DNA of 35,247 nucleotides from a virus (taxonomy: Duplodnaviria; Heunggongvirae; Uroviricota; Caudoviricetes), in the IMG/VR virus record IMGVR_UViG_2703719355_000021; one strand, given 5' to 3'. Shown here piece after piece: positions 7,128 through 34,257 of this stretch; position 1 is the stretch's first letter, and every line of letters begins with the position of its first letter. Under the pieces are notes generated by a model. The model had not been told where the DNA came from. It saw nothing but the letters and a program-made list of their open reading frames with translations, and did no database searches. Position numbers and translations under genes: made by a program.

Positions 7128-7622
7128 ATGGCCATGATGATGATCTACGGCATGTTTGTTTTTGAGCTGCGTACATTGCCGCATCAACAGTTACAGCAAA
7201 ACAAAAGCTGGCGGCATGTGAAAAATGAACGCGTTAACCGTTCAGCAAGCTGGCAGTATATCGGTGCAGGTGATGATCGCATCGTTCTTTCTGGTGTGCT
7301 TTATCCTGAAATTACAGGTGGCGAAGTGTCGCTGTCGCTGCTGACCACGCAGGCGTATACAGGACGACCCTGGCCTTTGATTGATGGTGTCGGGCAGATT
7401 TACGGCATGTATGTGCTGACTGAAACGAATACGACCCGTTCCGAGTTTGATCGCTACGGTAAGGCGAAAAAGATAGAATTTTCACTGACTCTTGAACGCT
7501 GTGATGAGGATTTGCGGGAGCGCCTGCAATCCTCATCGTTCAGTGATATGCTGTCCGGCTTCAAAGATAAGGTCACATCATCCCTTAACAGCGCGGCCAG
7601 CTCCGTTAAAGGGCTGTTTTGA
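7128..7622 (+). CDS. U: tail protein gpU
   Basis: 164 aa directly after the tape measure gene; P2 gpU-like. Confidence 0.88.
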   Translation: MAMMMIYGMFVFELRTLPHQQLQQNKSWRHVKNERVNRSASWQYIGAGDDRIVLSGVLYPEITGGEVSLSLLTTQAYTGRPWPLIDGVGQIYGMYVLTETNTTRSEFDRYGKAKKIEFSLTLERCDEDLRERLQSSSFSDMLSGFKDKVTSSLNSAASSVKGLF

Positions 7623-7631
7623 TTAACGCAA

Positions 7632-7668
7632 AACCGCTAATGGTCAGATTAGCGGTTATTTTGTTTTC
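7632..7668. terminator. bidirectional intrinsic terminator between convergent U and invertase genes
   Basis: aaccgctaat-ggtcag-attagcggtt perfect 10 bp stem followed by attttgtttt; it sits between the U stop and the invertase stop. Confidence 0.6.
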
Positions 7669-8243
7669 TGACTCTTCTCTATTGTTCCGCTTGATTCTCC
7701 TGCGGGGTGGTAACGATAAATCGTCGATGTACCAATGCCGTAAATTATTGCCAGTTGTTTTCTGTCGTGACCGTTTTTAATCAGCCTTGCTATTTGCTCA
7801 TGCTGTTCTTTTGTCAGCTTCGGGCGACGTCCGCCTGTGCGCCCCCGTGCGCGCGCTGCTGCCAGTCCGGCCAGTGTACGTTCAACGATTAATTCACGTT
7901 CCATTTCAGCCAGGGCACCCATAACGTGGAAGAAAAAACGCCCCATTGGAGAAGATGTATCTATGCTGTCGGTCAGACTGCGAAAATTAATCCCTCGCTC
8001 CTGTAGTTCCCCGACGAGAGAAATCAGATGTTTCATGCTTCGCCCGAGGCGATCCAGTTTCCAGACAACCAGCGTGTCACCTTTTTGAAGGCGCTTTAAA
8101 GCGCGTTTTAATCCCGGTCGGTCTGTCTTTGTCCCGCTTAATTTATCTTCAAATATTTGTTCACATCCTGCACAAACAAGAGCGTTTCGTTGCAGGTCTG
8201 TATTCTGGTCATTTGTTGATACCCTTACATAGCCAATCAGCAC
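7656..8243 (-). CDS. Gin/Pin/Hin-family serine DNA invertase
   Basis: Near-identical in pattern to Mu Gin (LIGYVRVSTNDQNTDLQRNALVCAGCEQIFEDKLSGT...); catalytic Ser in VRVSTNDQ; C-terminal HTH. Start taken as GTG at 8243 (GGGAGA ribosome-binding site); the track begins at a TTG at 8261. Confidence 0.92.
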   Translation of the reverse strand: MLIGYVRVSTNDQNTDLQRNALVCAGCEQIFEDKLSGTKTDRPGLKRALKRLQKGDTLVVWKLDRLGRSMKHLISLVGELQERGINFRSLTDSIDTSSPMGRFFFHVMGALAEMERELIVERTLAGLAAARARGRTGGRRPKLTKEQHEQIARLIKNGHDRKQLAIIYGIGTSTIYRYHPAGESSGTIEKSQKTK

Positions 8244-8314
8244 GCTGAATCTCCCGTCCAAAAGCGTAAATCATGCCATGCAGGTCAGAAACGGCCATTA
8301 TCTAAAACCTCGGT

Positions 8315-9262
8315 TTGCAGGAAACGATAAATCAGGCTTCAGGCGCATTGCAGAAAAACCAGAACGGCGCAGATATTCCAGGAAAAGATACCTTCACAAA
8401 AAATATTGGTGCATGTCGCGCTTTTCACAGTTCTATTAGTACAGGTGCAGGGAACTGGACGACGGCACAATTGATTGAATGGCTGGATTCTCAAGGGGCA
8501 TTCAATCACCCATACTGGATGTGCAAATGTTCATGGTCATACGGCAATAATAAAATTATTACCGATACTGGCTGTGGAACTATTCATCTTGCAGGTTGCG
8601 TTATTGAGGTTATGGGTAATAAAGGTGCCATGACCATCCGTGTAACCACCCCGAGCACTTCCAGCGGTGGCGGAACTACTAATGCACAATTTACTTATAT
8701 AAACCATGGCGCAGATTACGCCCCAGGCTGGCGGCGCGACTACAGCACAAAAAACCAGCAACCTGCATTTGCTTTAGGGCAAACAGGAAGCAGGGTTGCA
8801 AATGATAAAGCTGTTGGCTGGAACTGGAATAGCGGCGTTTATGATGCAGATATCAGTGGCGCATCGACATTAATCCTCCACTTCAATATGAATGCGGGGA
8901 GTTGCCCTGCTGTACAGTTCCGCGTGAATTATAAGAACGGCGGTATCTTTTATCGTTCAGCGCGTGATGGTTATGGCTTTGAAGCTGACTGGTCAGAGTT
9001 TTACACCACAACCCGCAAACCCTCTGCGGGGGATGTTGGTGCATATACGCAGGCAGAATGTAACTCAAGGTTTATTACAGGTATTCGCCTTGGCGGTCTG
9101 TCATCTGTTCAGACATGGAATGGTCCCGGCTGGTCTGACAGGTCAGGTTATGTCGTTACGGGTTCAGTTAACGGAAACCGTGATGAATTAATTGATACAA
9201 CACAGGCAAGGCCAATTCAGTATTGCATTAATGGGACGTGGTATAACGCGGGGAGTATTTAA
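8315..9262 (+). CDS. alternative (currently unexpressed) tail-fibre C-terminal variable segment
   Basis: The ORF begins inside the crossover site with ...LQET, the same residues found in gene H at the other site ([11 protein letters not shown]). It has no start codon of its own, so it would be fused to the H constant region after inversion. Confidence 0.8.
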   Translation: MQETINQASGALQKNQNGADIPGKDTFTKNIGACRAFHSSISTGAGNWTTAQLIEWLDSQGAFNHPYWMCKCSWSYGNNKIITDTGCGTIHLAGCVIEVMGNKGAMTIRVTTPSTSSGGGTTNAQFTYINHGADYAPGWRRDYSTKNQQPAFALGQTGSRVANDKAVGWNWNSGVYDADISGASTLILHFNMNAGSCPAVQFRVNYKNGGIFYRSARDGYGFEADWSEFYTTTRKPSAGDVGAYTQAECNSRFITGIRLGGLSSVQTWNGPGWSDRSGYVVTGSVNGNRDELIDTTQARPIQYCINGTWYNAGSI

Positions 9263-9264
9263 CG

Positions 9265-9798
9265 ATGATGCACTTAAAAAACATTACTGCTGGCAACCCT
9301 AAAACAAAAGAGCAATACCAGCTAACAAAGCAATTTAACATCAAATGGCTTTATTCAGATGATGGAAAAAACTGGTATGAGGAACAAAAGAATTTCCAGC
9401 CAGACACTTTGAAAATGGTCTATGACCATAACGGCGTTATTATTTGTATTGAAAAGGATGTTTCAGCAATTAATCCAGAAGGCGCAAGCGTCGTTGAGGT
9501 TCCTGATATTACAGCAAATCGCCGGGCTGATATTTCGGGGAAATGGATGTTCAAAGATGGCGTAGTGATAAAGCGAACTTACACCGAGGAAGAGCAGAGG
9601 CAACAAGCGGAAAATGAAAAGCAAAGCCTGTTGCAACTTGTCAGGGATAAAACCCAGCTATGGGACTCACAGCTACGGCTGGGCATCATTTCCGACGAGA
9701 ATAAACAAAAATTAACCGAGTGGATGCTCTATGCGCAGAAAGTCGAATCCACAGACACCTCCAGCCTGCCAGTAACGTTTCCCGAACAACCTGAATGA
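9265..9798 (+). CDS. tail fibre assembly protein (alternative copy)
   Basis: 177 aa, N-terminus MMHLKNITAGNPKT...[13 protein letters not shown] paralogous to the minus-strand copy at 9827-10354. Confidence 0.85.
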   Translation: MMHLKNITAGNPKTKEQYQLTKQFNIKWLYSDDGKNWYEEQKNFQPDTLKMVYDHNGVIICIEKDVSAINPEGASVVEVPDITANRRADISGKWMFKDGVVIKRTYTEEEQRQQAENEKQSLLQLVRDKTQLWDSQLRLGIISDENKQKLTEWMLYAQKVESTDTSSLPVTFPEQPE

Positions 9799-9802
9799 GA
9801 CA

Positions 9803-9822
9803 AGGCCCGATATCGGGCCTTA
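9803..9822. terminator. bidirectional hairpin between the convergent fibre-assembly genes
   Basis: aaggcccgatatcgggcctt perfect palindrome followed by a T-run on the plus strand. Confidence 0.55.
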
Positions 9823-9826
9823 ATTT

Positions 9827-10354
9827 TTATTCAGGCTTTTGTGGCCATTCAGGATTTGCCGTATCCACACGGCTGACCAGAACACTGTAGCGTTCCCATG
9901 ACTCCAGTCGTGCGCGTTCCTCATCCGTCGCCATATTCAGCCTGACGGCGCGTTCCAGTGGCTGAATAACGCTTTCTGCTTCGGAAATTAACGCGGCCTT
10001 TTGTGATTCGGCCTGTTGTTGCAGTTCCTGTTCTGTATATTCCCTCTTTACTACTTTACCATCCAGAAACATCCATTTTCCGTTATTGTCTGCGCGACGA
10101 TTTGCCGTAATATCAGGAACTTCAACTATGCTTAGCCCTTCAGGATTAATAGTTGAAACGTCTTTACTGACAGCAACGATGATGTTGTTCTCATCGTAAG
10201 CAATTTTTATGGTGTCTGGCTGAAAATTCTTTTGTTCCTCATACCAGTTCTTGCCATCTTCACAAAAGAGCCATACCACGCCCGCTTTTTTAGTTAGCTG
10301 GTATTGTTCCGGTGTTTTCGGATTCCCGGCCTTAATATTTTTCAGGTGCATCAT
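9827..10354 (-). CDS. G: tail fibre assembly protein gpG (expressed orientation)
   Basis: [14 protein letters not shown]... paralogue of 9265-9798; start taken at the tandem Met 1 nt after the H stop. Confidence 0.85.
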
Positions 10355-10355
10355 C

Positions 10356-12401
10356 TTAAACACTCCCCACGTTGTACCATATTCCCCCAATCAATTTCTG
10401 AATTGGCCTTCTGGCAACAGTGTCGACAATATCATCCGCATTGCTGTTCATTGCGGCTGTTAAAACATAACCTGACGCATCGCCAAAGCCGTAGTCGCGC
10501 CATACGTTTTTAAGTTCAATGCTGCCAAGACGAATATCCCGAACGACATGATTATGCAGCCATGTGCTTAACCAGTTGTTTTCCCACACTGAACCATAAA
10601 TATCGCCACTAGACGCGACTTGCGCACCACTTCCCAGAGTGAAACCGCCATCCCTTTTAAAGATGAAGTCACCACCACCATCTGAACCGTTATTAATATG
10701 AACACCATCACCACCGTTATCTTTCCACAAAAACATACGAATACTTCCGTCTTCGTTGGCGAATGTAATGTGGTGGCGGTAATTACTTTTTAATCTAAAA
10801 TTGCTGCCATTAGATTCAATATCTTTATAAATATGTAATCCTAACTCATCAATATGTCCTATGCGCGAACCATTTGAAAAGATGCTAATAAAACCATCTC
10901 CATCTTGCCTAAATCCGGTGTCGTTATCTCCCAGAACAATGGAGTTTTCACCCAGTGCGTTATCAGTAGCACCAATAGCTAGACCTCCTTCAATTTTGGC
11001 CCCGTGGCTGACAGATATAGCACCTGTTCTCAGATTTATAGCGAATGGCCTTAATGGGCCGATATCACCGTTTTCGCCTTGTCCTTCAGCCGTCGGAATG
11101 AAATGAAGAAAATCTTCTGAACGACGGAAAATAAGACCGAAGGCATCATTGAAAATTCGCAGCGCATTCACCGTGCCAATTTTCAGTTCTCCGGTCATTT
11201 TATCACCGGAACGCTGAACGGCGTTACCAGCCTTGTTTACCGTTTCCTGCAAACCGAGGTATTCGATAACGGCGGCAACGGTCGATTTCGCAAGAATATC
11301 CCGCCCGACTTTTGTCAGAGTTGCCAAGCTGGCGACATCATTCCCCGTAAAATACGGAAACCTGTCTGCCGCAGTAGCAAGCCCGGCCAGCGCCGTCAGG
11401 GTGGCATCTTTCGGTTGCTTACCCGCAAGCGCGTTAGTCATGGTGGTCGCAAAATTCGGGTCGTTGCCCAACGCCGCAGCCAGCTCGTTTAGCGTATTCA
11501 GTGCGTCAGGCGACGAGTCCACGAGGGCAGCGATCGCAGCCATAACGAAAGCCGTGCTTGCGATTTGGGTATTATTCGTTCCCTGTCGCGCAGTTGGCGT
11601 TGTTGGCGTTCCGGTCAACGCAGGACTGTTTAAGGGCGCTTTCTTGTTCGTTTCATCCATTACCGCCTTAACCGCTTTCGATGTCGCGGCCAGTGTTTCA
11701 GACGTGCTGTTGGTTGCACTGCTGAGCTGGACTATCCCTTTTCGTGCCGTCGTGGCGTCCTGAGCGGTATATTTTCCGTTAGCCAGGTCATACGCGGCCT
11801 TAACCGCTTTCGGCGTTGCGGCCAGCGTTTCAGAATCGCTGTTAGTGGCGCTACTGAGTTGAACAAAGCCTTTTGCGGTCAGCGAGGCATCCGGGTGACG
11901 TCGTGACTGTTCATGCTCTTTCAGTTTGTCATCCACGTAATCCACTGTGGCCATCACCATGGTGTTATCCACGGTAAGCGCCACGCTGGCAGTGCTGGAT
12001 ACGGTCAGAATGGTGCGAAATGTTTGTGCACGTCCGGACCCCTCGGCAACGGTTGGCTTGTAACTTTCGGCAGTATTGCCCACCGCGATTAAATCGCCGT
12101 GCTCATCAAATACACCAATTTCCCGGATCCAGAATCCGCCCGTTTCAGGAGGAATAACCAGCTCCGCAATAATGCGGTTCTGATGTGTTGCGTCCAGGAT
12201 GACGCGATTAACAGTGTGTCGCCACACCTCATGCACCAGACGGGTCTGCTTACTGTCTGGTGTGGGCAACGTGCCGCCACCGTCGCCCACGGCCATATGA
12301 GTCAGGCGGACAGGCTTACCATCTGGCGCGGCTGCCTGAGCTAATTTTTTTGCACCCGTATCGGTGATAACGGTTTTAAATTTTCGTGTTGTGGTACTCA
12401 T
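10356..12401 (-). CDS. H: tail fibre protein gpH (constant N-terminal part plus currently joined variable C-terminal part)
   Basis: 681 aa; N-terminus [24 protein letters not shown]..., internal repeats (ATNSxSETLAATxKAVKA twice); the crossover site lies in-frame at about 11244-11269. Confidence 0.9.
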
Positions 12402-12403
12402 GC

Positions 12404-12934
12404 TTAATCGTCCGGATAAATGGTAATAACTTCACCGTCATAAGTTGCCGCCGCTGCGAAAATACCCCCCGGAATTTCCTGAATGATATTCAGCCCTGTC
12501 ATGTGGCGGCTGACCGGACGGGCATCAGCAATCAACCGCTCCATTTCCAGATACATTTCCTCCGTCACGCCACTGTCCAGTGTGCCGACTTCAACGGTAA
12601 ATGTTCCCGGTTCTCCGCCGAACTCCCACCATTCAGACACGCGAATGAGGTATCCCAGCGGCTCAATGGCCCTGCGCAGTGCGCTGATGGTCCCTTTGTG
12701 TCGGTGTATCAGCCATGCATCACGAATAACCTGTCGCTTTGTCTCTTCCGGCCAGTTGCGATCCCAGCGGTCAACGGAAAATGCCCAGGCGAGATAGGGC
12801 AGCAGATGCACCGGACAGGTATCCGGCGACCACAGTGTGTTGAGGTCTACCGGAATGTCTGTAATGCGTGTTCCGACGGCTTCGGCACAACGCATGAAAT
12901 TGCTGGCTGATGGTGGTAACAACGAATTACTCAT
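12404..12934 (-). CDS. I: baseplate protein gpI
   Basis: Aligns with P2 gpI from MSNSLLPPSASN... (LLPYLAWAFSVDRWD, EMERLIADARP motifs). Start moved to the internal Met; the track ORF starts at 12967. Confidence 0.88.
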   Translation of the reverse strand: MSNSLLPPSASNFMRCAEAVGTRITDIPVDLNTLWSPDTCPVHLLPYLAWAFSVDRWDRNWPEETKRQVIRDAWLIHRHKGTISALRRAIEPLGYLIRVSEWWEFGGEPGTFTVEVGTLDSGVTEEMYLEMERLIADARPVSRHMTGLNIIQEIPGGIFAAAATYDGEVITIYPDD

Positions 12935-13823
12935 TGCGCCCACCTTCGCTGATGGTAAATGACTCACAGCGCGCCGCCTGTATGTCGCTGATGGCCATAT
13001 TCTGTGTGGGTTCGATTATCTCCACGCGTTGCACACCGTGCACATGCAGTGCGGCAGCAATGGCGGACAACGCCACGTCCTGACCGATAAGCCCCTGCTC
13101 AGCCAGCCACTTCCTGAACGACGATTCCGCCGCAGCCAGAATAGGTTCGGATTCCGGACCGGGGTAAAAGTACAGTTTTGCATTCAGCCGCCATGTCACG
13201 ATTCTGGCGCTCTGTACGGTCAGGCGGTCGGCCACCGGGCGGGTATCCTCTGCATTCAGAACGACGCGAACGGTATTAAGCAACGCCTCCGTTGCTGTGC
13301 CGTCGCCTTCAGTGGACAGGATGGAAACCGTCACACAGGCCGGAGACGGACTGATAGCCCGCGCATCGCGTACCAGACCGCTGGCGCTGCGGGCAAAATA
13401 CTCGTATGCACCTGAAGGGCCAGCAACACTCAGACCGTCATATGCCCGTTGCGCCCGTAGTCTCAGCGAGGTGTCACTTTCCATCACTGCGTCGGTGGTA
13501 TCCGTTGCCGGAGTGATGGTCAGGCGTTTTGTGTTCATATTGCCCGTGAGGTTGTCCAGGTCTGTCCCGGCGCTGTGGCTTAACATGCAGGCGCGTGCCC
13601 CCTCATTGATCCGCTGGCGTAACAGCATTTCACGAAAAGACATGGTTTGAGCGATAACGTTCAGGGGTTCCGATTCCAGCTCCAGCGCGGCGGAGACGGC
13701 TTCACGCTGTTCGGCAGGATAGGACGCAATCATCATGGCCTTTGTGTCAGCCAGAATTGCCTCAAAGTCAGGCTCCGCGATGATGGCGGGGTCCGGTAAC
13801 TGTGAAAGGTCAACGGCGGGCAT
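12927..13823 (-). CDS. J: baseplate protein gpJ
   Basis: 298 aa; P2 gpJ-like size and position between W and I. Confidence 0.88.
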   Translation of the reverse strand: MPAVDLSQLPDPAIIAEPDFEAILADTKAMMIASYPAEQREAVSAALELESEPLNVIAQTMSFREMLLRQRINEGARACMLSHSAGTDLDNLTGNMNTKRLTITPATDTTDAVMESDTSLRLRAQRAYDGLSVAGPSGAYEYFARSASGLVRDARAISPSPACVTVSILSTEGDGTATEALLNTVRVVLNAEDTRPVADRLTVQSARIVTWRLNAKLYFYPGPESEPILAAAESSFRKWLAEQGLIGQDVALSAIAAALHVHGVQRVEIIEPTQNMAISDIQAARCESFTISEGGRNE

Positions 13824-14177: not shown

Positions 14178-14755
14178 TGCGGGCCTCCTGTCGAATCGCT
14201 GCCGCCTTTCACGCCACCGTGTTTATGCGTATGCACGGTAATGCCGTTTGAGGTGAAATTGCCGCCGCTGTGCGTGATATTGCCGCTCATCTTTCCCCCT
14301 TTTGTGACGTCAAGCGTCGCCGTTCTCAGAAGGTTTGTGCATTCCACGACGGGCGTATCCAGTTTCACGCTGACGGATGCCTGTAAAGTGGCCGTTTTCA
14401 TGCCGCTGGCGCTCAGTGCGCCTGCGTCCGCGTCGTAGCGGAACACCGCGCCGTCCGGCGCGCTGATCACGATTTCTTTCAGGCTTTTGCCGGGTGCCGG
14501 ACTGGCATCACTCCACAGGCTGCCAATTATCATGGCGGTTTCCGGGTTGCCGCCAATGCAGGCAATTGCCACCTGTTCGCCTGGTGATGGCGGCAGCCAC
14601 ACATTGAAGGCTCCCGCGCGCGTGGTGTTCCAGCGCAGCCAGCCTGTTTCCAGTTCGCCGCTGCGAACGCGCACGCGCCAGGACTTCTCATCAACTTCAG
14701 AGATGATCCCGGTGCGGATGATATTGCTCAGCAGTCGCATGAGTTCTGCGCTCAC
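14174..14755 (-). CDS. V: baseplate spike / assembly protein gpV
   Basis: 193 aa; Gly-rich C-terminus typical of gpV-family spikes. Confidence 0.88.
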   Translation of the reverse strand: MSAELMRLLSNIIRTGIISEVDEKSWRVRVRSGELETGWLRWNTTRAGAFNVWLPPSPGEQVAIACIGGNPETAMIIGSLWSDASPAPGKSLKEIVISAPDGAVFRYDADAGALSASGMKTATLQASVSVKLDTPVVECTNLLRTATLDVTKGGKMSGNITHSGGNFTSNGITVHTHKHGGVKGGSDSTGGPQ

Positions 14756-15396
14756 CGTACAGCCTCCGCAATCCGGCCCAGCACCGTGTTATAAATCAGG
14801 CGCTCATCTGCCTGGCTGATACCCAGCAGCTCACGTACCGGGTAATCGGTGAAAATGCCCGGCGCAACCTGATCGCGCTCACCGAACTGATGAACGCGGG
14901 CAATACGTGCGGCCACGCCGCTGTAACCCACCGTCACACCGGAAGCATCTGCACGGGCTTTCAGGTAGCGGGCGGTGCGCAGTTTTACGAACATGGGGAC
15001 GCGCTTTGTGCTGTCCTGGTTGATGCGCCGGGTGCGTATTTCCAGAAAACGGTCGATGTCATCCCGGTAAAACGTGCGGATATTATTTTTATCCTCATCC
15101 CACCCGGTAATGGTTCGCCCGTATTTCCCCGTGTCGTGATGCCAGTTTTTCAGCGTGCGTGCTTCGTTATTCCAGATAAAGCGAATGCGCTCCTGTATCC
15201 GGGTTACGCGGCGTCTGCGTGGTGTCCATGCGGTCCCGTCCGGCGCTTTCTGTGACCGGATACGTGCCTGCTGGGCGCGGCGTAAATCCTGTGCCAGCTT
15301 TCTGGCGATGTTATTGATGGCCTGCTGATTCAGGCTGTCGCGGATGGCCTCAAAGGTTTCATCCACGCGGGTGAATGCCTTATCCATCGCTTTCAC
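14752..15396 (-). CDS. S: tail completion / virion morphogenesis protein (gpS family)
   Basis: Position between R and V; longer (214 aa) than P2 gpS. Confidence 0.7.
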   Translation of the reverse strand: MKAMDKAFTRVDETFEAIRDSLNQQAINNIARKLAQDLRRAQQARIRSQKAPDGTAWTPRRRRVTRIQERIRFIWNNEARTLKNWHHDTGKYGRTITGWDEDKNNIRTFYRDDIDRFLEIRTRRINQDSTKRVPMFVKLRTARYLKARADASGVTVGYSGVAARIARVHQFGERDQVAPGIFTDYPVRELLGISQADERLIYNTVLGRIAEAVR

Positions 15397-15847
15397 CCCA
15401 CGTCACATCCTGGAATACATGCGACCAGTCGCCTTCGGAAGATGGCAGGCGGGGTTTTGGCTCCGGCAGGTGTTCTGCCTGCGGTGTGCCCTGACTGCTG
15501 CGCGTGATGCGAACGCGTTCCCGCAGGGGGAGCGTAAACAGGAGATCGGCGCTGTCATCGTCATTGATAACGGCGGAGAATTTGATGTCCTGATTACGCT
15601 CAGGGTTGAGCAACAACTGTGGCTGATTTTCGGATAACCACGCCAGCAGCGGCAGCGTGAGGTCGTCCAGCTCCCCGGCGTAATCCATGACAAACATCAC
15701 CATCTGATAGCGGTAAACAAACGAGGGCGTTTCTCCGGTCGTTTCAATGTTGCCGCTCTCCACGAAAATGGTGAATTTTTCCGGGTTAGCCTGACACCAT
15801 CGGCATGAACGGGTCATGGCTTCACGCAGGGAATCAGTTTTCAGCAT
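15380..15847 (-). CDS. R: tail completion protein gpR
   Basis: 155 aa, the same length as P2 gpR, immediately after the lysis genes. Confidence 0.85.
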   Translation of the reverse strand: MLKTDSLREAMTRSCRWCQANPEKFTIFVESGNIETTGETPSFVYRYQMVMFVMDYAGELDDLTLPLLAWLSENQPQLLLNPERNQDIKFSAVINDDDSADLLFTLPLRERVRITRSSQGTPQAEHLPEPKPRLPSSEGDWSHVFQDVTWGESDG

Positions 15848-23661: not shown

Positions 23662-24034
23662 ACTCTCCAGCTCCTGTATCAATCAGATAATTTCACGACG
23701 CTTTTCTGCTTATTGCCATCATCGGCGGTCAGACTCTTACGCAATCCCACCGCATTGACTGCATGTTCTCGCCGCCTCAGTGCGATTTTGACGGCCTTAC
23801 CTTTCACCCCATCAAATCAGAATCCCTCACGTATTCTTCACGCTCAGCGTGAGAAATACAGCCATTCTGTTGTGTCGCTGCGACATCGTTCAGGGGATGC
23901 TATTTACCCCCTGAAACGCGGGCTGTTCCCCCGTCACCTGCGCGCAGAAAAAGCGCGTTTTTTTGTGCACGCACGGATCCTTGACGGATCCAGCCGCCAC
24001 GCGGGCCGGAAGGGCAAAAAGTCGTTCAAAAAAA

Positions 24035-24061
24035 TTGTGCAAATTTGTGCACTATTGTGCA
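24035..24061. repeat. three TTGTGCA direct repeats at exact 10 bp phasing
   Basis: attgtgcaa / atttgtgcac / tattgtgcag; a fourth copy about 70 bp upstream (about 23963); lies in the Q-to-accessory gap where cos is expected. Confidence 0.5.
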
Positions 24062-24101
24062 GCAGGGCGATGCGCGATTATCGCCCTGGTTTGAGAGGAA
24101 A

Positions 24102-24641
24102 TCAGGTGTTCTTTTTACCTTCTGTCAGTGGGCATAACCATCCACTATTTACATCACTTAGCTGATGCGTTCTTTCCTCGTGCTTCTCCTGCCACAATGC
24201 TTTTCCGCCAGCCTTTATGATGGCTCTTTCAACATCCCGCTCGTATCGCAAGGGCTGAAATACGTCATTAATGAAATATTCGCTTATGTCCGGAAGCGAT
24301 ACTGCAAAATTATTTGTTTGTTGCGCCGTCCTGCTATGCAGCAAAGCGGCATACTTTAATGCGTCCTGTGCTTTCTGGAATTTAAGTGCATAGTCAGTGG
24401 CGATTTTTTCCAGTTCAGCGATGCGTTTTTTTGCTGTTTCCAGTTCATCCAGCAGTGCCAGCATGTCTTCCGGTCCAGCCAGAATTCTGAAGGTGTTGAT
24501 CGCGTCAATATCCACACCGTAATCTTTAAGTTCCTGTTCGCTTAACAAATCATCATCAACTGGCAATATTAACAGGCGTTCCATTGCCGGAATTGCACGT
24601 TCTGCTGCCATTTGTAGTGCCTGATAGTCAATTTTGCTCAC
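24102..24641 (-). CDS. Ead/Ea22-like family protein (paralogue 2)
   Basis: MSKIDYQALQMAAERA... N-terminus and ALLDELETAKKRIAELE coiled-coil motif typical of Ea22-like proteins; start overlaps the stop of the upstream paralogue (ATGA). Confidence 0.8.
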   Translation of the reverse strand: MSKIDYQALQMAAERAIPAMERLLILPVDDDLLSEQELKDYGVDIDAINTFRILAGPEDMLALLDELETAKKRIAELEKIATDYALKFQKAQDALKYAALLHSRTAQQTNNFAVSLPDISEYFINDVFQPLRYERDVERAIIKAGGKALWQEKHEERTHQLSDVNSGWLCPLTEGKKNT

Positions 24642-25237
24642 TGGCTGCCTCCTTTGCGAAGCTCTGCGGCGAAATATACAGCTGCGGAAACAATAGCTGC
24701 ATGTCGGTATTCATCATCAGAAAATAAAGAATCTCCCTTAAGTGCATTGACGATACTCTGATGATTTTTTGCCAGCATCTCCACGCCCTGCGCCCGTACT
24801 TCAGCCAGAAAAGCGTCGGTGGCTGGGGTTTGTGGCATTCCTCCGTCTGTTGCGCAGATATACGCGTCAGATATTTCATCCTGCTCTCCATCAAATACAT
24901 AGCAACTGCCCCTGATAAACAGCTTCATTGCGGCATTCTCCGCTGCCAGCTCCGTGAAATTAGCCTCCAGCTCTGCAATGCGTTTGCTTTGGGCTTCTCG
25001 TTCATCCAACAGAGCCTGCACTACTTCAGGGTTGAAAGCTGCGATATAACGAGCGTTGTTCTCTGCGTTTTTCTGTTCGTCGAATCCAGGCCAGTCGACA
25101 ATATCTCCGTGATGATTATCTCCTGGTGTGTGCACGGCGTACGTGCCGTATTTGCCCGGCGAAATAAATGCGACCCATTCGCCCTGTGTTGCCTGTTTTG
25201 CTAACTCACGCAGTGCCTGATAGTTGATTTCGCTCAT
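24638..25237 (-). CDS. Ead/Ea22-like family protein (paralogue 1)
   Basis: MSEINYQALRELAKQATQGEW... and ALLDEREAQSKRIAELE; AAGGAG ribosome-binding site. Confidence 0.8.
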   Translation of the reverse strand: MSEINYQALRELAKQATQGEWVAFISPGKYGTYAVHTPGDNHHGDIVDWPGFDEQKNAENNARYIAAFNPEVVQALLDEREAQSKRIAELEANFTELAAENAAMKLFIRGSCYVFDGEQDEISDAYICATDGGMPQTPATDAFLAEVRAQGVEMLAKNHQSIVNALKGDSLFSDDEYRHAAIVSAAVYFAAELRKGGSQ

Positions 25238-25300
25238 TAAGTCGGTCTCCTTGTTTATGTTCTGAGGTGGAGATCAGGGCGAACTCGCCCTGACGTTGTG

Positions 25301-25612
25301 TTATTCGGGAAATAACGCCCGGATATTTCCGGCCATCTGACTGGTTATCTGTGCGGTTGGTGCTGGCTGTGGCACGGGGCGTTCTGTCCTGGTTTGTGTC
25401 ACTGATAACGCCTCGCCATCAGCCCATGCAGCCAGTCGGTAAGCCTCTGCCGGATTCATTTTCAGAAGTGCCAGCCCGGCCAGAAAAGCCACGCGTTGGC
25501 TGCTTTTGCGGGCTTCTGGTGTAAGGCTGTCCAGCCAGGCGCATGCTTCGCTTTCGTTCTTGACGGCGGCGGGCTTCAGATAGAAACTTATCCGTCTGGT
25601 TGGTGTCGTCAT
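25301..25612 (-). CDS. parR: ParR-like centromere-binding partition adaptor
   Basis: Internal start MTTPTRRISFYLKPAAV...LDSLTPEARKSSQRVAFLAGLALL...IRALFPE matches recalled plasmid R1 ParR (RRTIAFKLNPDV...LDSIPQGERSRLNRAALTAGLALY...LRSLFPK); AAGGAG ribosome-binding site embedded in the parM 3' end. Confidence 0.75.
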   Translation of the reverse strand: MTTPTRRISFYLKPAAVKNESEACAWLDSLTPEARKSSQRVAFLAGLALLKMNPAEAYRLAAWADGEALSVTQTRTERPVPQPAPTAQITSQMAGNIRALFPE

Positions 25613-25616
25613 TGGT

Positions 25617-26576
25617 TTACTCCTTGTCCATTGCGTACAGCCCATTAACCAGAGCAAACTGTGGCACCCCGTCCGCGATGAAAGTCGCATTAACTCCGCA
25701 GGCTTCGCGGATAGCGGGTGCCACAATCTCCGCCCCGCCACCGACAACCATCACCCGCCCGTAACCCGAAAAACCCGCCAGTGCGCGGATTACGCGTTGT
25801 TTCAGTGTTTCTTCCTTTTCACGAATAACCGCCATCAGGCTGGCGTAATGCGCGTCATTGTGGATGTGCTGGCGCAGCCAGGCTTCATCATGGCGATGTT
25901 CGATAATGGTATTGGCGATGTGGTGACTGGTACGCATACCGTTAGTGGCCATCACCGACAGTACGGCATCGGCCATCAGGGAAACGCCTACGTGTGGATC
26001 GCAAAACACCTGGCTGATACCTGCCAGTTGTCCCTGAACCTTTGCCACATCCAGCGTGGTTCCGCCTAAATCCACAATCAGCAGGGATTCAAACGGACTC
26101 ATGTCAGCCAGTGCTTTAAAACCAGCCGGTATGGATTCAGGCATAACCCGTACGTTACGGATAGTGAATGCTTTTCCGTTCTGGTACGCCACCGGGCGCA
26201 TGACGTTTGCTTTTTTGCGGTTGATGTTGGCCATGTCCGGCTGTGCGTTTGTGTCGAAATACTCGCTCAGTGGCAGGGTGACAACCACATCCACCTCCTG
26301 TGGCGTGATGCCTGATTTGACCAGCGCGTGATGAATGGCAATGACATTCACATCGCTGTACTGGTATTGCGTGTCGGTCGTCTGGACAAAGCGATCGCTG
26401 ACCGGATCAAAACCATAGCGCACGCCATCAAGCATGTAGTTCGCGGGCTGCGTGCCACCGAACGGCGCAGACCATTCCGACTTGAAGCTGTTCGGGCTGA
26501 TGGCGTTGCGGCGTTCGCCGTTCTCAGTCCATGCCAGCTTGATGTTGGTGGAGCCGTCGTCGATACAAATTCTCAT
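25617..26576 (-). CDS. parM: ParM/StbA-family actin-like segregation ATPase
   Basis: MRICIDDGSTNIKLAW...ISPNSFKSEW...YQYSDVNVIAIHHAL...VDVVVTLPL closely parallels R1 ParM (MLVFIDDGSTNIKLQW...ISPNSFKREW...WQYSDVNVVAVHHAL...); AAGGAAAA ribosome-binding site. Confidence 0.9.
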   Translation of the reverse strand: MRICIDDGSTNIKLAWTENGERRNAISPNSFKSEWSAPFGGTQPANYMLDGVRYGFDPVSDRFVQTTDTQYQYSDVNVIAIHHALVKSGITPQEVDVVVTLPLSEYFDTNAQPDMANINRKKANVMRPVAYQNGKAFTIRNVRVMPESIPAGFKALADMSPFESLLIVDLGGTTLDVAKVQGQLAGISQVFCDPHVGVSLMADAVLSVMATNGMRTSHHIANTIIEHRHDEAWLRQHIHNDAHYASLMAVIREKEETLKQRVIRALAGFSGYGRVMVVGGGAEIVAPAIREACGVNATFIADGVPQFALVNGLYAMDKE

Positions 26577-26605
26577 CTCGATTTTCCTTATGTTGATTAA
26601 TTAAT

Positions 26606-26720
26606 CGTTTACGGGATTCTGAAATCCCGTTTTTGCCTGTTTTGTGCGCGCTTCACATATCGCTGCGCGTTTTTTGCTCATTTACGGGATTTGTGAATCC
26701 CGTTTCTGTCTGTTTTTTGT
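26606..26720. repeat. two ~40 bp direct repeats, each with a palindrome (acgggatt-N5-aatcccgt), upstream of parM: candidate parC centromere/operator
   Basis: cgtttacgggattctgaaatcccgtttttgcctgtttt (about 26606) and catttacgggatttgtgaatcccgtttctgtctgtttt (about 26679), 73 bp apart; the second lies within the last codons of gene A. Confidence 0.5.
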
Positions 26721-29475
26721 TTCCACTGGTCAGGCCACCCCGCAGCAGGTCTGCTTTGCGGCGGGCGCGTTCAGTGGTTTCACTGATTCTCTGTGCGTGC
26801 TCTGCGTCGCGGATGGCGCGCAGCATGTCAGAAAGCACGGTAACGGGTGTTTTCATGGTGTTCTGGTCCTGCTGAAGTGTGGATGCCAGGCGTGCGGCGG
26901 CTTCAGGGTCTGATGCCCCCAGCTGTGCCAGATAGCTGGCGACCGGGTTATGGCGGATCTCCGTGCTGCTTACGCCATGATTACGGCTCAGGCGCTGCCA
27001 GAGCTGCGTGATTCGGCTGTCCGGGCGGGTATCCGGTTTGCGTACAATTTCAAATCCCTGCGGTGCAATGATGCTGCCGTCAACGTACAGACTGCCGCCC
27101 CGTAACAGGTGCTGCATCTGTTGTTCACCGATATGCAGGCCGAGAGATTCAGCAGACTCTCGCCATTCTTTAGCGAGTAATTCGTGGTTATCAGGCAAAG
27201 GCCGCTGCTGTTTGCGGCTCTGTGTCCAGCTCTGCATTTCATCACTGCTGTTTTTTGCCTGTTTGTCACGAAGCGAACGCATCAGCGCCCGGCGTTCGTG
27301 CCGTTTCAGTGAGCGCATCCATTCGTTCACTTCAACGCCGTCAGGGAGCTGCGGCCACGGTGCTGGCCGTTCTTCCGGCTGTTCTGTCCCGTTGTTGTCC
27401 GTTTCCTGTACACGGGGACAGTTATTGCCACGAGTCCAAGGGGCGGCAGGGCCGCCCTGAAGGTCAAAACCATTTTCGCGGGCGCTGTCTTCCGCTTCCG
27501 GTTTGCGTCTTACCAGCTTCCAGTTATCCGGATGCGTGCACACACGGGAGGATTCCCCGATGAGTGGTGACCAGATCCCGTAAATCTGTACGCTCTGTTC
27601 GCCGTAATCGTTCAGCTCATCGGCGAGGTCGTAGGCGGTGCGAATCAGGTAGTCTTTGCGTGGAACAAGTACGCCGCCCTGTTTCTCTATGTAGGTGGCA
27701 AAACATCCGGCATCAGCGGCGGCAAGAACCGCATCCATTGCGTCATCCTTCAGCCGTTGCGGGCCTTCCGGGTTGCGTGCCATCTGGCTGGCAAGGCGGC
27801 GCAGTTCACGCCATACCTGGCGGGAGGGGATGCCAAAGAACTGGAACTGGCGGACCCGGTGAAGGCGCGCCCAGCCGATGGCGCGTTCCACGCTCTCGGC
27901 CATTGATTTTCCGGTTTCGTGGTCAACGCGTGGCTTGCCCGTTTTCGGGTCGATGCCATCCACGGCGCGGCTGTCCAGGTTTTTCCCGATGTAGGTGGCA
28001 ATGTAGCTGGTTGGCGTGCCTTTTGAGCCGTCTACATACTCCGCCTTAAAGCGCGGAGTTATGTCATCGCCCAGCTCGTGACGATCTTCCTGAATGGCAA
28101 TATCGCGGGTGTGGGACACAATGGTGTCGATTTCTTCCGGATGAGCAAAGACCATCATATGCCAGTGCACGGTGCCGTCATGGTGAGGCTCCACCGTGCG
28201 GATGCCATACCAGCGCAGGCCGTCGCGGTTCAGTTTCTTGCGGACCGCCGCAAAAAACGTGTTAACCAGGTAATCGCTGGAGTCGCGCATGGTGGCCCCG
28301 TTCCATTTGGGGTTCGGATGACCGTTCTCCGTTGTTGCGTGGTATTTTGACGGGCAGGTGACGGTCAGAAACACCGCTCTGTCGCCACGGGCTTCGGCCA
28401 GAAGTTCCAGTCCCTTCATGGTGGCCATCATTTCTGCTTTACGGTGAACCGGGTTACTTACTCCCGCGTAATACACCGTCTCGAGATCAATCGTGAACCC
28501 GTCTTCATTTTCCAGCATGAAACTTTTCAGGAAATCGCGTGTTTTCTCGCGCTGTGCGCGAAACTCGCTTAACGCGTCCTGGCTCAGATAGGGTGATGTT
28601 TTTCTGGAAACCAGACAGGCGGCGCGGAGTTGTTCTTCTCTCCACTCGCAACGTAACAGCCACAGTTTGCGTTTCCACCATTCCGCACAGGTCAGGCGAA
28701 GGATTGCGCCCGGCAGCAGCTCCGTGTCCGGTTCGTTCCTCCGGTCTTTATCTGTTGTCAGTGCGTCATAATGTGGAGGCATGATGTGCAGGTGTAACGC
28801 CATGCGGGCCAGCATCTGATACGCCTTCAGCGTTACATCCATGGTCAGTTCGCCATCGGTCGCGCCAAAGCCATCGCAGAGTTTTTCGAAGGTGCTGCTG
28901 AACATCGCCGCCGTCATGGTGGCCAGCGTCTGTATCTGGTGTTTGTTGAGCTGCGGCAGGTAAAGCAAATCGTCCAGGCGTTCGCGTCCGGCAAGGGAGC
29001 GATAACCCGGTGTCAGCCAGTGTCCGTCAGTGCGATCCAGACGTTCGAATATTTTGCGCAGGGTTCCGCGTGCATAGCGTTCCGCCTGCCAGCTCTTTTT
29101 GCCTTTCCGGCGATCGGCTTCCTGTTTTTTGCGCAGGAAGGAGAGGTGGCGAATAAGCGGATCGCGCAGATAGGACGGCAGCAGGCGCAGCGAGGCCATG
29201 GCTTCATCCACCGCGCCGCGTGCCTGTTTTCTGGCGTCTCCTGCCAGTGTGATGGTTTTGTCCTGTTTTTCCTGTGCGTCCAGGCTTTTATTAATCAGGT
29301 TGCCCAGCGGCGTGGCGGAGAACGCCGCATCAGCCATTTCCTTGCGGCGCTCGTTCTCTGCCCGGTAGGCATCCAGCCAGGAGGAAAGCGCGGATTCAGG
29401 AGCGGGGATCCCCGTTCCTTCACGCCCCACTGCGTGGCGCGGTTGTTGCCAGTCCCTGATGTACTCTGCCGTCAT
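26653..29475 (-). CDS. A: replication initiation protein gpA (rolling-circle endonuclease family) with extended C-terminal region
   Basis: 940 aa; HHDGTVHWHMMVF-type HUH-like motif and P2/186 A-like central region; last gene of the early operon; about 180 aa longer than P2 A. Confidence 0.88.
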   Translation of the reverse strand: MTAEYIRDWQQPRHAVGREGTGIPAPESALSSWLDAYRAENERRKEMADAAFSATPLGNLINKSLDAQEKQDKTITLAGDARKQARGAVDEAMASLRLLPSYLRDPLIRHLSFLRKKQEADRRKGKKSWQAERYARGTLRKIFERLDRTDGHWLTPGYRSLAGRERLDDLLYLPQLNKHQIQTLATMTAAMFSSTFEKLCDGFGATDGELTMDVTLKAYQMLARMALHLHIMPPHYDALTTDKDRRNEPDTELLPGAILRLTCAEWWKRKLWLLRCEWREEQLRAACLVSRKTSPYLSQDALSEFRAQREKTRDFLKSFMLENEDGFTIDLETVYYAGVSNPVHRKAEMMATMKGLELLAEARGDRAVFLTVTCPSKYHATTENGHPNPKWNGATMRDSSDYLVNTFFAAVRKKLNRDGLRWYGIRTVEPHHDGTVHWHMMVFAHPEEIDTIVSHTRDIAIQEDRHELGDDITPRFKAEYVDGSKGTPTSYIATYIGKNLDSRAVDGIDPKTGKPRVDHETGKSMAESVERAIGWARLHRVRQFQFFGIPSRQVWRELRRLASQMARNPEGPQRLKDDAMDAVLAAADAGCFATYIEKQGGVLVPRKDYLIRTAYDLADELNDYGEQSVQIYGIWSPLIGESSRVCTHPDNWKLVRRKPEAEDSARENGFDLQGGPAAPWTRGNNCPRVQETDNNGTEQPEERPAPWPQLPDGVEVNEWMRSLKRHERRALMRSLRDKQAKNSSDEMQSWTQSRKQQRPLPDNHELLAKEWRESAESLGLHIGEQQMQHLLRGGSLYVDGSIIAPQGFEIVRKPDTRPDSRITQLWQRLSRNHGVSSTEIRHNPVASYLAQLGASDPEAAARLASTLQQDQNTMKTPVTVLSDMLRAIRDAEHAQRISETTERARRKADLLRGGLTSGNKKQTETGFTNPVNEQKTRSDM

Positions 29476-33106: not shown

Positions 33107-33448
33107 TTATAAATCAGCCTGTTTAATAAAACTTTGTCCGCGAAGCAGACGATCAACCGTGCGTAGTGCTTCGTATAATGTGAAATCCTGCCCGAACTGA
33201 TTGTCGCCGCAGCTCAATGCAAAAATGCGGTTTCCGGTAAACGGATTGCGTGGGCATTTGTGAACCACGATTCCAGCTTTCTCAATCAGCCAGGCATGCT
33301 CGCCGATTTGTTTTACAGCGTGGCCATCCGGTGTTGCGTGTGTTTCGCTCAGGCTGTAGCGAGAGCTGCTGCGTGATGCACTGGTGGCGAAACGGTTAGC
33401 GTGGCGTTCAGCCCCATTACGAAAGCGTGAATTACGTTGCTGTTTCAT
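33107..33448 (-). CDS. hypothetical protein (113 aa)
   Basis: Track ORF, second gene of the early operon. Confidence 0.5.
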   Translation of the reverse strand: MKQQRNSRFRNGAERHANRFATSASRSSSRYSLSETHATPDGHAVKQIGEHAWLIEKAGIVVHKCPRNPFTGNRIFALSCGDNQFGQDFTLYEALRTVDRLLRGQSFIKQADL

Positions 33449-33466
33449 ATCAAAACTCCCTGCATC

Positions 33467-33793
33467 TCATGCAGCAAAATTAAGGAAGCCTAATCCCAAA
33501 TCTTCCGCCAGCTTCTTGGCTTTCTTAAGCCAGTGATTGCGCCAATCTTTACGCTCAGGAGGAAGCTGTTTCGTTGCGTCATAGACCATTTCGAGCCACT
33601 CATTCCAAAGGATGAGAAGACGGCGCGAACTCCCTTCCTCGCCTAAAACCTCGCGCTCAGTAGTTAGAGGGATGAGTCGACGCTCTACCAACTTTCTTAC
33701 GGCTGATTCGGTCTTACCTGTGCGGCGGGAAAACTCATCGACGGTGATGGGGTCTGGGATCTTAAACAATGCCCTCAATAGTTCTTCATTCAT
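33467..33793 (-). CDS. Cox/Apl-like small HTH regulator (putative excisionase / switch protein)
   Basis: First gene of the leftward early operon, divergent from C; internal start MNEELLRALFKIPDPITVDEFSRRTGKTESAVRKLVERRLIP (HTH); GGGAG ribosome-binding site. Assignment is by position. Confidence 0.6.
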   Translation of the reverse strand: MNEELLRALFKIPDPITVDEFSRRTGKTESAVRKLVERRLIPLTTEREVLGEEGSSRRLLILWNEWLEMVYDATKQLPPERKDWRNHWLKKAKKLAEDLGLGFLNFAA

Positions 33794-33888
33794 GTGATAA
33801 TCTCCCTGTTTGGGGTATTTCTTGCGACGGATGCCCCAAATCAAACTCATTTGTATAAACATTAATACAGACGTTGGAGAATTGCAAC

Positions 33889-34191
33889 ATGCGTATGACT
33901 ATTGGAGAGCGCATAAAAATCATGCGTGAAAGCGAGAGACTTACTAGCCTCCCGGATACAGCAAAAATGCTTGGTTTAAACCGTGATGCTCTGTGGAGAT
34001 ATGAAAGCGGTAAAACTATCCCTAATGCTGAAGTAATTGAGCAAATACTAAACAACCCCAGATTTGAGAAATATGCGTTGTGGTTTATGACTGGGAAAAT
34101 TGCGCCTGAATCCGGGCAGATAGCTCCGGCTCTCGCACACTATGGGCAAGAGCCAACGGACTTACCCCCATCCGAAAGGAAAATTGGCTAA
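33889..34191 (+). CDS. C: P2-type immunity repressor C
   Basis: TIGERIKIMRESERL...YESGKTIP...FEKYALWFMTGKIAPESGQIAPALAHYGQ aligns with P2 C (TISEKIVLMRKSEYL...YESGRSTP...FTKYTLWFMTNQIAPESGQIAPALAHFGQ); start at the ATG with a GGAGA ribosome-binding site. Confidence 0.88.
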   Translation: MRMTIGERIKIMRESERLTSLPDTAKMLGLNRDALWRYESGKTIPNAEVIEQILNNPRFEKYALWFMTGKIAPESGQIAPALAHYGQEPTDLPPSERKIG

Positions 34192-34257
34192 CCCTTTATT
34201 ATTCTTACGTTTTACAAACTGGAAATGTCTTTCCTCGTTTCACCGGAGGGCTTGCCA

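Follow-up and report, generated by a model that had tools for sequence, protein, structure and literature searches.

Within the window, the 35,247-nt stretch of viral DNA that we analyzed, a 2.9-kb segment made up of two convergent cassettes, Sv'-U' and Sv-U, lies between an inverted pair of gix-type 26-bp sites (Table 1). A gin-type invertase gene adjoins the left-hand site, and the constant part of the tail fiber gene H lies beyond the right-hand one. Its sequence marks the window as a complete E. coli prophage of P88-like type (Xuanwuvirus, Peduoviridae): positions 71-33427 are 91-97.5% identical to phage P88, and with a full P88-like gene set running from ogr to integrase, the prophage looks complete and inducible. 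Its tail is of P2 type, as the preliminary description had proposed, with Pfam matches to Phage_P2_GpU, Tail_P2_I and Phage_tail_fib. Scanning the variable cargo ORFs with PADLOC yielded nothing meaningful.

Table 1. Features of the invertible segment and its surroundings (window positions)
Feature	Position	Strand	Evidence or remark
Hairpin terminator between gin and the convergent gpU tail gene (7128-7622, +)	7632-7657	.	Terminator-like site, read from the sequence
gin-type serine DNA invertase, 195 aa	7656-8243	-	Pfam Resolvase 1.3e-50, HTH_7 1.3e-13
Putative recombinational enhancer (Fis-binding "sis" region) in the 5' coding part of gin	8159-8221	.	98.5% Mu identity and Fis-like motifs
gin-proximal gix-type site	8298-8323	+	TTATCTAAAACC-TC-GGTTTGCAGGAA; 24 of 26 positions as in Mu gix
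Sv', silent alternative fiber C-terminus, in frame with the site	8324-9262	+	Pfam gp37_C; 87% aa identity to the variable part of Mu S'
U', tail fiber assembly chaperone for Sv'	9265-9798	+	Pfam Caudo_TAP 3.8e-37; 98% to Mu U'
Perfect palindromic hairpin between the convergent cassettes	9802-9821	.	AAGGCCCGATATCGGGCCTT; terminator-like site
U, tail fiber assembly chaperone for Sv	9827-10354	-	Pfam Caudo_TAP 1.1e-36; 83% to Mu U
Sv, variable C-terminus of H now expressed, 294 aa after ...LGLQET	10356-11243	-	Pfam gp37_trimer
Sc-proximal gix-type site, inside the H reading frame	11244-11269	-	TTATCGAATACC-TC-GGTTTGCAGGAA; 23 of 26 positions as in Mu gix
Sc, constant N-terminal part of H, outside the segment	11270-12401	-	Pfam Phage_tail_fib 1e-53, Phage_fiber_2 repeats

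Fiber gene, variable tips and crossover sites

The H open reading frame (10356-12401, minus strand, 681 aa) is of P2 type and crosses the right-hand site, beyond which it continues as VNKAGN.... At the left-hand site a second continuation opens in frame (...LGLQET/INQASG...), and this alternative, Sv', has neither a start codon nor a promoter of its own: an in-frame TAA lies just upstream (8303-8305), and the sole "start" for the frame is a mechanical TTG within the site. Both U and U', one behind each fiber variant, match Caudo_TAP. The preliminary description had read the locus in this way, with H crossing one site, a startless alternative at the other and an assembly gene for each tip, and all three points are borne out; the coordinates it gave for the inverted 26-bp sites proved exact. 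A computed flipped junction is translated without interruption and joins the constant part of H to Sv' in frame, lengthening H from 681 to 698 aa. The geometry is that of the Mu G and P1 C segments, in which a constant N-terminus lies outside, two opposed sets of tip and chaperone lie inside, and the silent set is startless.

Sc (387 aa) is 99.7% identical to its counterpart in a related prophage of E. coli T28R and 88% identical to that of P88. The tip now expressed, Sv, finds its best match among sequenced phages at 46%, in Yersinia phages vB_YpM_23/3, and is 30% identical to P2 gpH; it is 98% identical to the copy that is silent in T28R. Aligning the two sites and the two variable regions, a check proposed with the preliminary description, gave the following picture. 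The sites have identical cores, each with a central TC, and are embedded in a 45-nt inverted repeat (8294-8338 and 11229-11273) whose arms are 87% complementary. Sv and Sv' have only their last 67 aa in common (42%), which predicts that they recognize different receptors.

The site pattern, allowing at most 3 mismatches, matches twice in the 35-kb window and never in 100 shuffles. A third crossover site, which would make the locus a shufflon like that of an EPEC P2 prophage, is ruled out by this search at the same tolerance. The gix-type sites are kept in P88, T28R, Mu, plasmid pHN68-3 and an ATCC 25922 plasmid, and thus a lack of conservation in relatives, raised beforehand as a possible objection, is not seen.

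A consensus promoter scan gave three weak matches, fewer than in shuffled sequence (6.7), none of them at either entrance to the segment. The scan likewise found no promoter upstream of gin, a result that is uninformative on gin expression. The hairpin between the cassettes is likely to act as the terminator for whichever of them is transcribed, a function suggested by its sequence and position.

The invertase and its putative enhancer

The left-hand site is separated by 55 bp from the invertase gene, which carries both Resolvase and HTH_7 domains, in keeping with the Gin-like invertase noted earlier beside the sites; the likely start codon is a GTG (8243) that follows GGGAGA. Across 181 aligned residues the protein shares 84.5% identity with Mu Gin, and it is 99% identical to the invertases of P88 and T28R. 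Residues 1-183 align to crystallized Mu Gin (4m6f, 3uj3; E~1e-100) with Ser9 and Met114 conserved, so that loss of the catalytic serine, the second objection foreseen, does not apply. The locus thus has the traits of its class: a serine recombinase of ~190 aa with an N-terminal catalytic Ser9 and a C-terminal HTH, and two inverted 26-bp sites with the same central dinucleotide.

Identity to Mu gin breaks sharply within the gene, from 95.9% before codon ~115 to 51% after it (the 3' 243 alignment columns). The diverged DNA-binding domain variant is kept at 97-100% in P88-like phages that carry the same sites; because this domain differs from that of Mu Gin, the site preference that we assign to the enzyme follows from this co-occurrence.

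Over its first 200 nt, gin has 98.5% identity to its Mu counterpart, and two degenerate Fis-consensus 15-mers lie there, their centers 97 and 145 bp away from that of gix and 48 bp from each other. The Fis sites of Mu are placed within the gin coding sequence, ~550 bp upstream of where mom starts (PMC3378877), and therefore fall in the 5' part of gin. The enhancers of Fis-dependent invertases (Hin, Gin, Cin, Pin) have two such sites spaced about 48 bp. Hin likewise has a Fis-bound enhancer within the invertase gene, ~100 bp from one 26-bp site, and contacts Fis and the enhancer through a helix-B patch (R43/K47/R48/K51) and through Q151/R154/L155 in helix 1 of the DNA-binding domain (PMC3798978). 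The window invertase has R42, K46, R47 and K50, as in Mu Gin, and "EQIARL" in helix 1 supplies the Q, R and L. Residue numbering is shifted by one between Hin and Gin.

Orientation of the segment in related genomes

Comparison with sequenced genomes indicates that the segment can invert, both orientations being found in nature. E. coli T28R carries a related prophage whose flanks are collinear with the window at 96-98% identity, while positions 8294-11273 are inverted at 97.3%; our synthetic flipped junction is present there at 100% over 402 nt, and the fused 698-aa H (Sc plus Sv') is the form that T28R carries as expressed. The junctions of the two prophages are reciprocal: the outer half-sites have stayed beside the flanks and the inner half-sites have moved along with the inverted DNA. 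The crossover falls within 20 nt that include the central TC. Because they differ overall by 2-4%, T28R and the window are related prophages and not the same clone. A second case comes from the ATCC 25922 assembly NZ_CP032086.1, in which two tandem plasmid copies have collinear flanks (99.9%) and a 3071-nt cassette inverted between them at 99.97%. This cassette is ~90% identical to that of the window, and site position 20, polymorphic for A and G, moves with the segment. The preliminary description had allowed that only a single orientation might ever be seen; the reciprocal flip in T28R, together with both orientations of a related cassette in ATCC 25922, shows otherwise.

That the comparison places the crossover within 20 identical nt does not in itself tell which enzyme acted, and the difference in orientation could in principle reflect homologous recombination by RecA, acting on the 45-nt inverted repeats in place of the invertase. 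We regard this as extremely unlikely. Perfect identity between the repeat arms extends over 20 nt at the longest, which is below the length for efficient RecA recombination. Moreover, the crossover interval falls on the core of a serine-invertase site of canonical form, next to an intact Gin gene and its putative enhancer, and inversion in homologous systems is frequent and depends on Gin or Pin (PMC3575834, PMC4272514).

The two orientations are unevenly represented. Among complete E. coli genomes, at a coverage of at least 80%, the junction of the present orientation type is found in 243 and the other in 21, a difference of ~10x; the best match to the present junction itself in the complete E. 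coli collection is 99.8% (plasmid pHN68-3), with none at 100%, and the closest prophage is that of T28R. This skew would suit a locus of G-type ancestry that no longer flips, either because gin is unexpressed or because its DNA-binding domain misfits the sites, leaving the orientation fixed and the silent cassette to decay. The lack of a gin promoter in the consensus scan and the ~51% nucleotide identity of the DNA-binding domain to Mu point the same way. Against such a relic stand the full-length state of the silent Sv' and U', which are 87-98% identical to functional Mu proteins, an intact gin with Ser9, the identity of the two site cores, and the exact reciprocal flip in a prophage as close as T28R. 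The occurrence of the same DNA-binding domain variant with the same sites in P88-like phages likewise speaks against a misfit, and we consider a frozen locus very unlikely.

Relation to known switches and proposed mechanism

The closest prototype is the Mu G segment (NC_000929: S, U, U', S', gin), with which the locus has the order Sc - gix - Sv - U - U' - Sv' - gix - gin in common and 87.5% nucleotide identity over window positions 7855-10354. The two differ in their constant part, which is that of Mu S (175 aa) in one and a P2 gpH-type N-terminus (387 aa) in the other, and in the DNA-binding domain of Gin. Only one of the window's tips, Sv', is Mu-like, whereas Sv is unrelated to Mu Sv apart from the last 67 aa (43%). 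Downstream, the window lacks the com/mom genes found in Mu, and gin converges instead on the P2-type gpU tail gene.

In P88 (NC_026014, gp39-gp43) the gene arrangement is the same, and Sv' and U' are 88% and 99% identical to those of the window. The outer half-sites are also the same, while in the inner ones site position 20 alone differs, being A in P88 and G in the window. The expressed Sv of P88 is only 34% identical to window Sv, and a 44-aa fiber repeat is present in three copies in P88 and two in the window. The published P88 host-range and fiber-swap study makes no mention of inversion or of a second tip. The C segment of P1/P7, with Cin, belongs to the same family of invertible fiber segments; over the Sv'-U'-U part it matches the window at 88-90% nucleotide identity, and its carrier is a plasmid prophage, a phage type unlike that of the window.

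The mechanism of such switches and their occurrence in P2-like prophages are already established, invertible fiber segments having been documented there by experiment. In the P2-like prophages of EPEC E2348/69, a serine invertase flips alternative fiber C-termini (Goldberg et al. 2014, PMC4272514), and both orientations coexist in clonal cultures, as found by sequencing and, for a four-variant locus, by PCR (PMC4272514). At the EPEC loci the sites are of Pin type (AAACCTTGGTTTGGGAGAA...), and one locus is a three-site shufflon, whereas the window has two gix-type sites. The EPEC inversions are therefore not those of the window's cassette, and they support the class and not the exact element. 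Salmonella Hin/hix has the enzyme subfamily and the invertasome logic in common with the window, including 26-bp sites, and the window's putative enhancer would answer to the Fis-bound one of Hin (PMC3798978), but Hin flips a promoter and the window's switch flips coding cassettes, so that the biological output differs.

We consider it very probable that this P88-like (Xuanwuvirus, P2-like) prophage carries a functional Gin/gix inversion switch homologous to the Mu G segment. The host-range switch of Mu/P1 type envisaged in the preliminary description accords with this reading, in that every component is present, the enhancer as a putative one, and, to judge from alignment, homologous to the prototype, with Sv' as the one Mu-like tip. 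On the model of the homologous Mu Gin and Hin, Gin dimers would bind both sites and host Fis would occupy the enhancer in the 5' end of gin, the invertasome assembling from these parts on supercoiled DNA. Ser9 would then cleave both sites at the central TC, and a 180-degree rotation of half the tetramer followed by religation would invert the segment. The late operon, comprising the baseplate genes and then H, is expected to read through the right-hand site and so to join the 387-aa constant part to Sv and U at present (681 aa) or to Sv' and U' once flipped (698 aa); the cassette left unjoined, lacking both promoter and start codon, would stay silent. From the alternative H fusions it follows that a lysogen population should release particles of two receptor specificities, which may amount to bet-hedging on host range. 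For the source strain we infer both Gin activity and Fis dependence, and we likewise infer the pattern of transcription and the hosts served by each tip.

The switch might instead serve mainly the lysogen and not the virion, if inversion changed the fiber or chaperone product and thereby altered susceptibility to other phages. PinQ/PinR-type invertases of cryptic prophages offer a precedent: in E. coli, inversion of fiber-gene DNA by serine invertases that cryptic prophages encode reportedly blocks the adsorption of T2 (PMC12529663; bioRxiv 10.1101/2025.03.28.646004). For the window this seems very unlikely as the main role. The prophage looks complete and inducible, with the full P88-like gene set; its fiber genes belong to the late operon and would be expected to be silent in a lysogen; and nothing in the sequence points to their expression there. 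That the virion-directed host-range switch also alters the susceptibility of the lysogen, as for PinQ/PinR, is a less likely addition to its role.

The sharp identity breaks inside gin and at the Sv boundary suggest, tentatively, that the catalytic half of gin with its putative internal enhancer, gix and Sv'-U'-U form a portable block. Such a block may move between Mu, P1/P7, P88-like P2 phages and RepA phage-plasmids, with each lineage grafting on its own invertase DNA-binding domain, constant fiber part and second tip; we rate this somewhat below an even chance.

The window's switch opens no new question, and it matters chiefly for annotation: the "partial" fiber ORF at 8315-9262 is the silent half of a switch and not a pseudogene, and a 2.9-kb inversion is a legitimate difference between assemblies of such prophages. 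For host-range prediction and phage-therapy work on P88-like phages, both tips need to be considered.

Architecture of the fibre segment

A crossover site divides H, the P2-type tail-fibre gene, into a constant N-terminal part (Sc) and the variable C-terminus expressed at present (Sv). In the direction of H the order is Sc, site, Sv, its assembly chaperone (U), a hairpin, the chaperone (U′) of a silent alternative tip, that tip (Sv′), the second site and the serine invertase gene gin (table), exactly the order S, U, U′, S′, gin of phage Mu. U and U′, both Caudo_TAP proteins, follow Sv and Sv′, respectively, and so each fibre variant has its own assembly gene, as a preliminary description had proposed.

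Features of the segment, its neighbours and the variable parts of the prophage
Feature	Position	Strand	Remarks
gpU, P2-type	7128-7622		Neighbour on gin side
gin	8243→7656	-	Resolvase + HTH_7
gin-proximal site	8298-8323	+	TTATCTAAAACC/TC/GGTTTGCAGGAA
Sv′	9262←8324	+	Silent tip; gp37_C match
U′	9798←9265	+	Caudo_TAP chaperone
Hairpin	9802-9821		Perfect palindrome between the cassettes
U	10354→9827	-	Caudo_TAP chaperone
Sv	to 10356	-	Tip expressed at present
Sc-proximal site	11244-11269	-	Inside H frame; TTATCGAATACC/TC/GGTTTGCAGGAA
Sc	12401→11270	-	P2-type Phage_tail_fib N-terminus + fibre repeats
gpI, P2-type	12404-12967		Neighbour on Sc side, with gpJ and gpW
Ead/Ea22-like ORF	24102-24641	-	Cargo slot
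Ead/Ea22-like ORF	24638-25237	-	Cargo slot
Cox-like ORF	33467-33862	-
HTH repressor-like ORF	33874-34191	+
Tyrosine integrase	34225-35247	+	Gene ends at last base

A repeat search of the window identified a 45-nt inverted repeat (8294-8338/11229-11273, 87% complementary) containing both 26-bp sites. With up to three mismatches allowed, the site pattern matched the window only at these two sites and gave no match in 100 shuffles; the location of the inverted repeat agrees exactly with the one first proposed. The Mu crossover sites (gix) read TTATCCAAAACCTCGGTTTACAGGAA, to which the window sites are identical at 24/26 and 23/26 positions. The H ORF (10356-12401, minus strand, 681 aa) continues through the right-hand site as ...|VNKAGN..., and the plus strand at the left-hand site reads ...LGLQET|INQASG... 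in frame; a TAA in this frame lies at 8303-8305, and Sv′ itself lacks a start codon. Both readings had been made beforehand and both stand. A synthetic flipped junction, with crossover at the central TC, translates as a single unbroken frame, and the H product would change from 681 aa at present to 698 aa after the flip, the length annotated in Escherichia coli T28R, which carries a closely related prophage. The constant part of H contains two copies (11665-11760 and 11797-11892) of a 132-nt (44-aa) fibre repeat with the motif QLSSATNS and is 387 aa long, whereas phage P88 has three copies and an Sc of 431 aa.

Natural inversion of the segment

Both the present (Sc-Sv) and the synthetic flipped (Sc-Sv′) junction served as queries against 5,426 complete E. 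coli genomes. At query coverage of at least 80%, the flipped junction occurred in 21 genomes versus 243 for the present one, and in T28R it matched with 100% identity over all 402 nt. The T28R prophage is collinear with the window in both flanks (96.2% and 98.1% identity), window 8294-11273 aligns to it in the opposite orientation (97.3%), and six of six proteins are 97.7-99.7% identical. The exchange is reciprocal: at the Sc-side site of T28R, the outer half and flank are those of the window's Sc side but lead into Sv′, and its gin-side site retains the gin-side outer half and then enters Sv. From the differences between the repeat arms, the crossover maps within an interval of 20 nt, ACC-TC-GGTTTGCAGGAA-ACG, that includes the central TC. 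Inversion by RecA is unlikely, given that the perfect identity common to both arms amounts to only 20 nt and the crossover falls on the canonical invertase core. That the segment is a frozen relic is also unlikely: the silent genes and gin are intact, and the flip is found in T28R.

The 94-kb ATCC 25922 "plasmid" NZ_CP032086.1 is an approximately twofold concatemer of a 48.5-kb phage-plasmid. Its copies (23736-28863 and 72224-77351) have collinear flanks (99.9% identical) around a 3,071-nt fibre cassette that is inverted between them (99.97%), and an A/G polymorphism at site position 20 travels with the segment. Since this cassette bears the same site type, shares ~90% identity with Sv′-U′-U of the window and occurs in both orientations, a close relative flips within one strain. 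The possibility, raised in the preliminary description, that only one orientation is ever observed is contradicted by this record and by the reciprocal flip in T28R. The ATCC 25922 assembly captured both switch states.

Relatives of the cassette and prophage

Mu is 87.5% identical in nucleotides over window 7855-10354, and its S′ variable part, U′ and U are 87%, 98% and 83% identical in amino acids to Sv′, U′ and U. The constant part of the Mu fibre, in contrast, is unlike Sc, and the resemblance of Mu Sv to the expressed Sv is confined to the last ~67 aa (43%). Among sequenced phages, the nearest relatives of Sv reach 46% (Yersinia phages vB_YpM_23/3), and P2 gpH is 30% identical. P88 is annotated with this five-gene set (one fibre, a pair of assembly proteins, another "fibre" and a DNA invertase), and its segment is oriented as in the window, but its Sv differs (34% aa). 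The sites are kept in P88, T28R, Mu, pHN68-3 and the ATCC 25922 plasmid. On pHN68-3 (NZ_CP141847.1, 8579-12159), a RepA phage-plasmid with an unlike tail backbone, the same cassette, including the window's Sv, lies in the same orientation, with 93.7% identity to window 8304-11877, which shows that it passes from one phage backbone to another, unrelated one.

In essence the window is an entire P88-like prophage, extending from hok/ogr to a tyrosine integrase gene that ends at its last base; over 71-33427 it is 91-97.5% identical to Escherichia phage P88 (Xuanwuvirus, Peduoviridae). The left end (81-767) matches a T28R stretch, adjoining ihfA there, with genes for a Hok/Gef family toxin and an ogr/Delta-like zinc-finger late activator; between ogr and a gpD-like gene, T28R carries an inserted DUF3800 gene (14484-15653 of its locus) at a point that is empty in the window (~767-770). 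A variable cargo slot between the portal-gene side and the partition-replication genes (24061-25273) is unlike both P88 and T28R, which carries a hypothetical gene and a TOPRIM-domain gene there; PADLOC returned no match for the two cargo-slot ORFs. The immunity/integration end (33427-35247) has no P88 match.

Invertase, putative enhancer and expected switching

The invertase is 84.5% identical to Mu Gin over 181 aa and aligns over its full length with the crystallised protein (4m6f, 3uj3), with Met114 and the nucleophile Ser9 conserved. Loss of the catalytic serine, considered in the preliminary description, is thus not what we find; Ser9 is the residue changed to Ala in 3uj3, and its role in Gin is documented (PMC3575834). 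The gene is mosaic: its 5′ 345 nt are 95.9% identical to Mu (5′ 200 nt, 98.5%) and the remainder 51%, with a break near 7898. Conservation of 97-100% in the C-terminal DNA-binding domain is confined to P88-like phages; against other invertases the identity of this domain is 62-69%.

Enhancers of this family span ~65 bp, with a Fis site at either end, ~100 bp from one crossover site (PMC3798978). Mu has its Fis sites within the gin coding sequence, ~550 bp upstream of the start of mom (PMC3378877), hence in the 5′ part of gin, and the window counterpart aligns nearly identically. A degenerate Fis consensus scan gave 15-mers whose centres lie 97 and 145 bp from that of the crossover site, a spacing of 48 bp; because this motif is loose, we treat the enhancer as a predicted element, conserved by homology rather than demonstrated. 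The invertase also has the basic helix-B residues and the Q/R/L of DNA-binding-domain helix 1 that are invertase-specific Fis/enhancer contacts (PMC3798978).

Inversion of the Mu G, P1 C and e14 P segments is textbook knowledge, and the original reading of a Mu/P1-type switch on a P2-like tail is correct, well made and ordinary. Fibre inversions are phase-variable in clonal cultures of P2-like E. coli prophages, but at Pin-type sites (PMC4272514), and systematic surveys find tail-fibre, phage tail protein I and tail-fibre assembly genes enriched at or beside programmed inversions (PMC9881135). The sole mild gap is the silence of the P88 host-range paper, which nowhere mentions the invertible segment.

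Gin dimers at both sites and Fis on the enhancer would form an invertasome on supercoiled DNA, in which Ser9 would cut at the central dinucleotide, subunits would rotate 180 degrees and the ends would be religated (PMC3575834, PMC3798978). By analogy with P2, H would be transcribed from the upstream late operon, so that expression would include the cassette abutting Sc and its chaperone, and transcription would stop at the central hairpin. A lysogen-level defence role like that of PinQ/PinR is conceivable but finds no support here. Sv and Sv′ show no relationship along most of their length, and the two tips are therefore predicted to bind different receptors.
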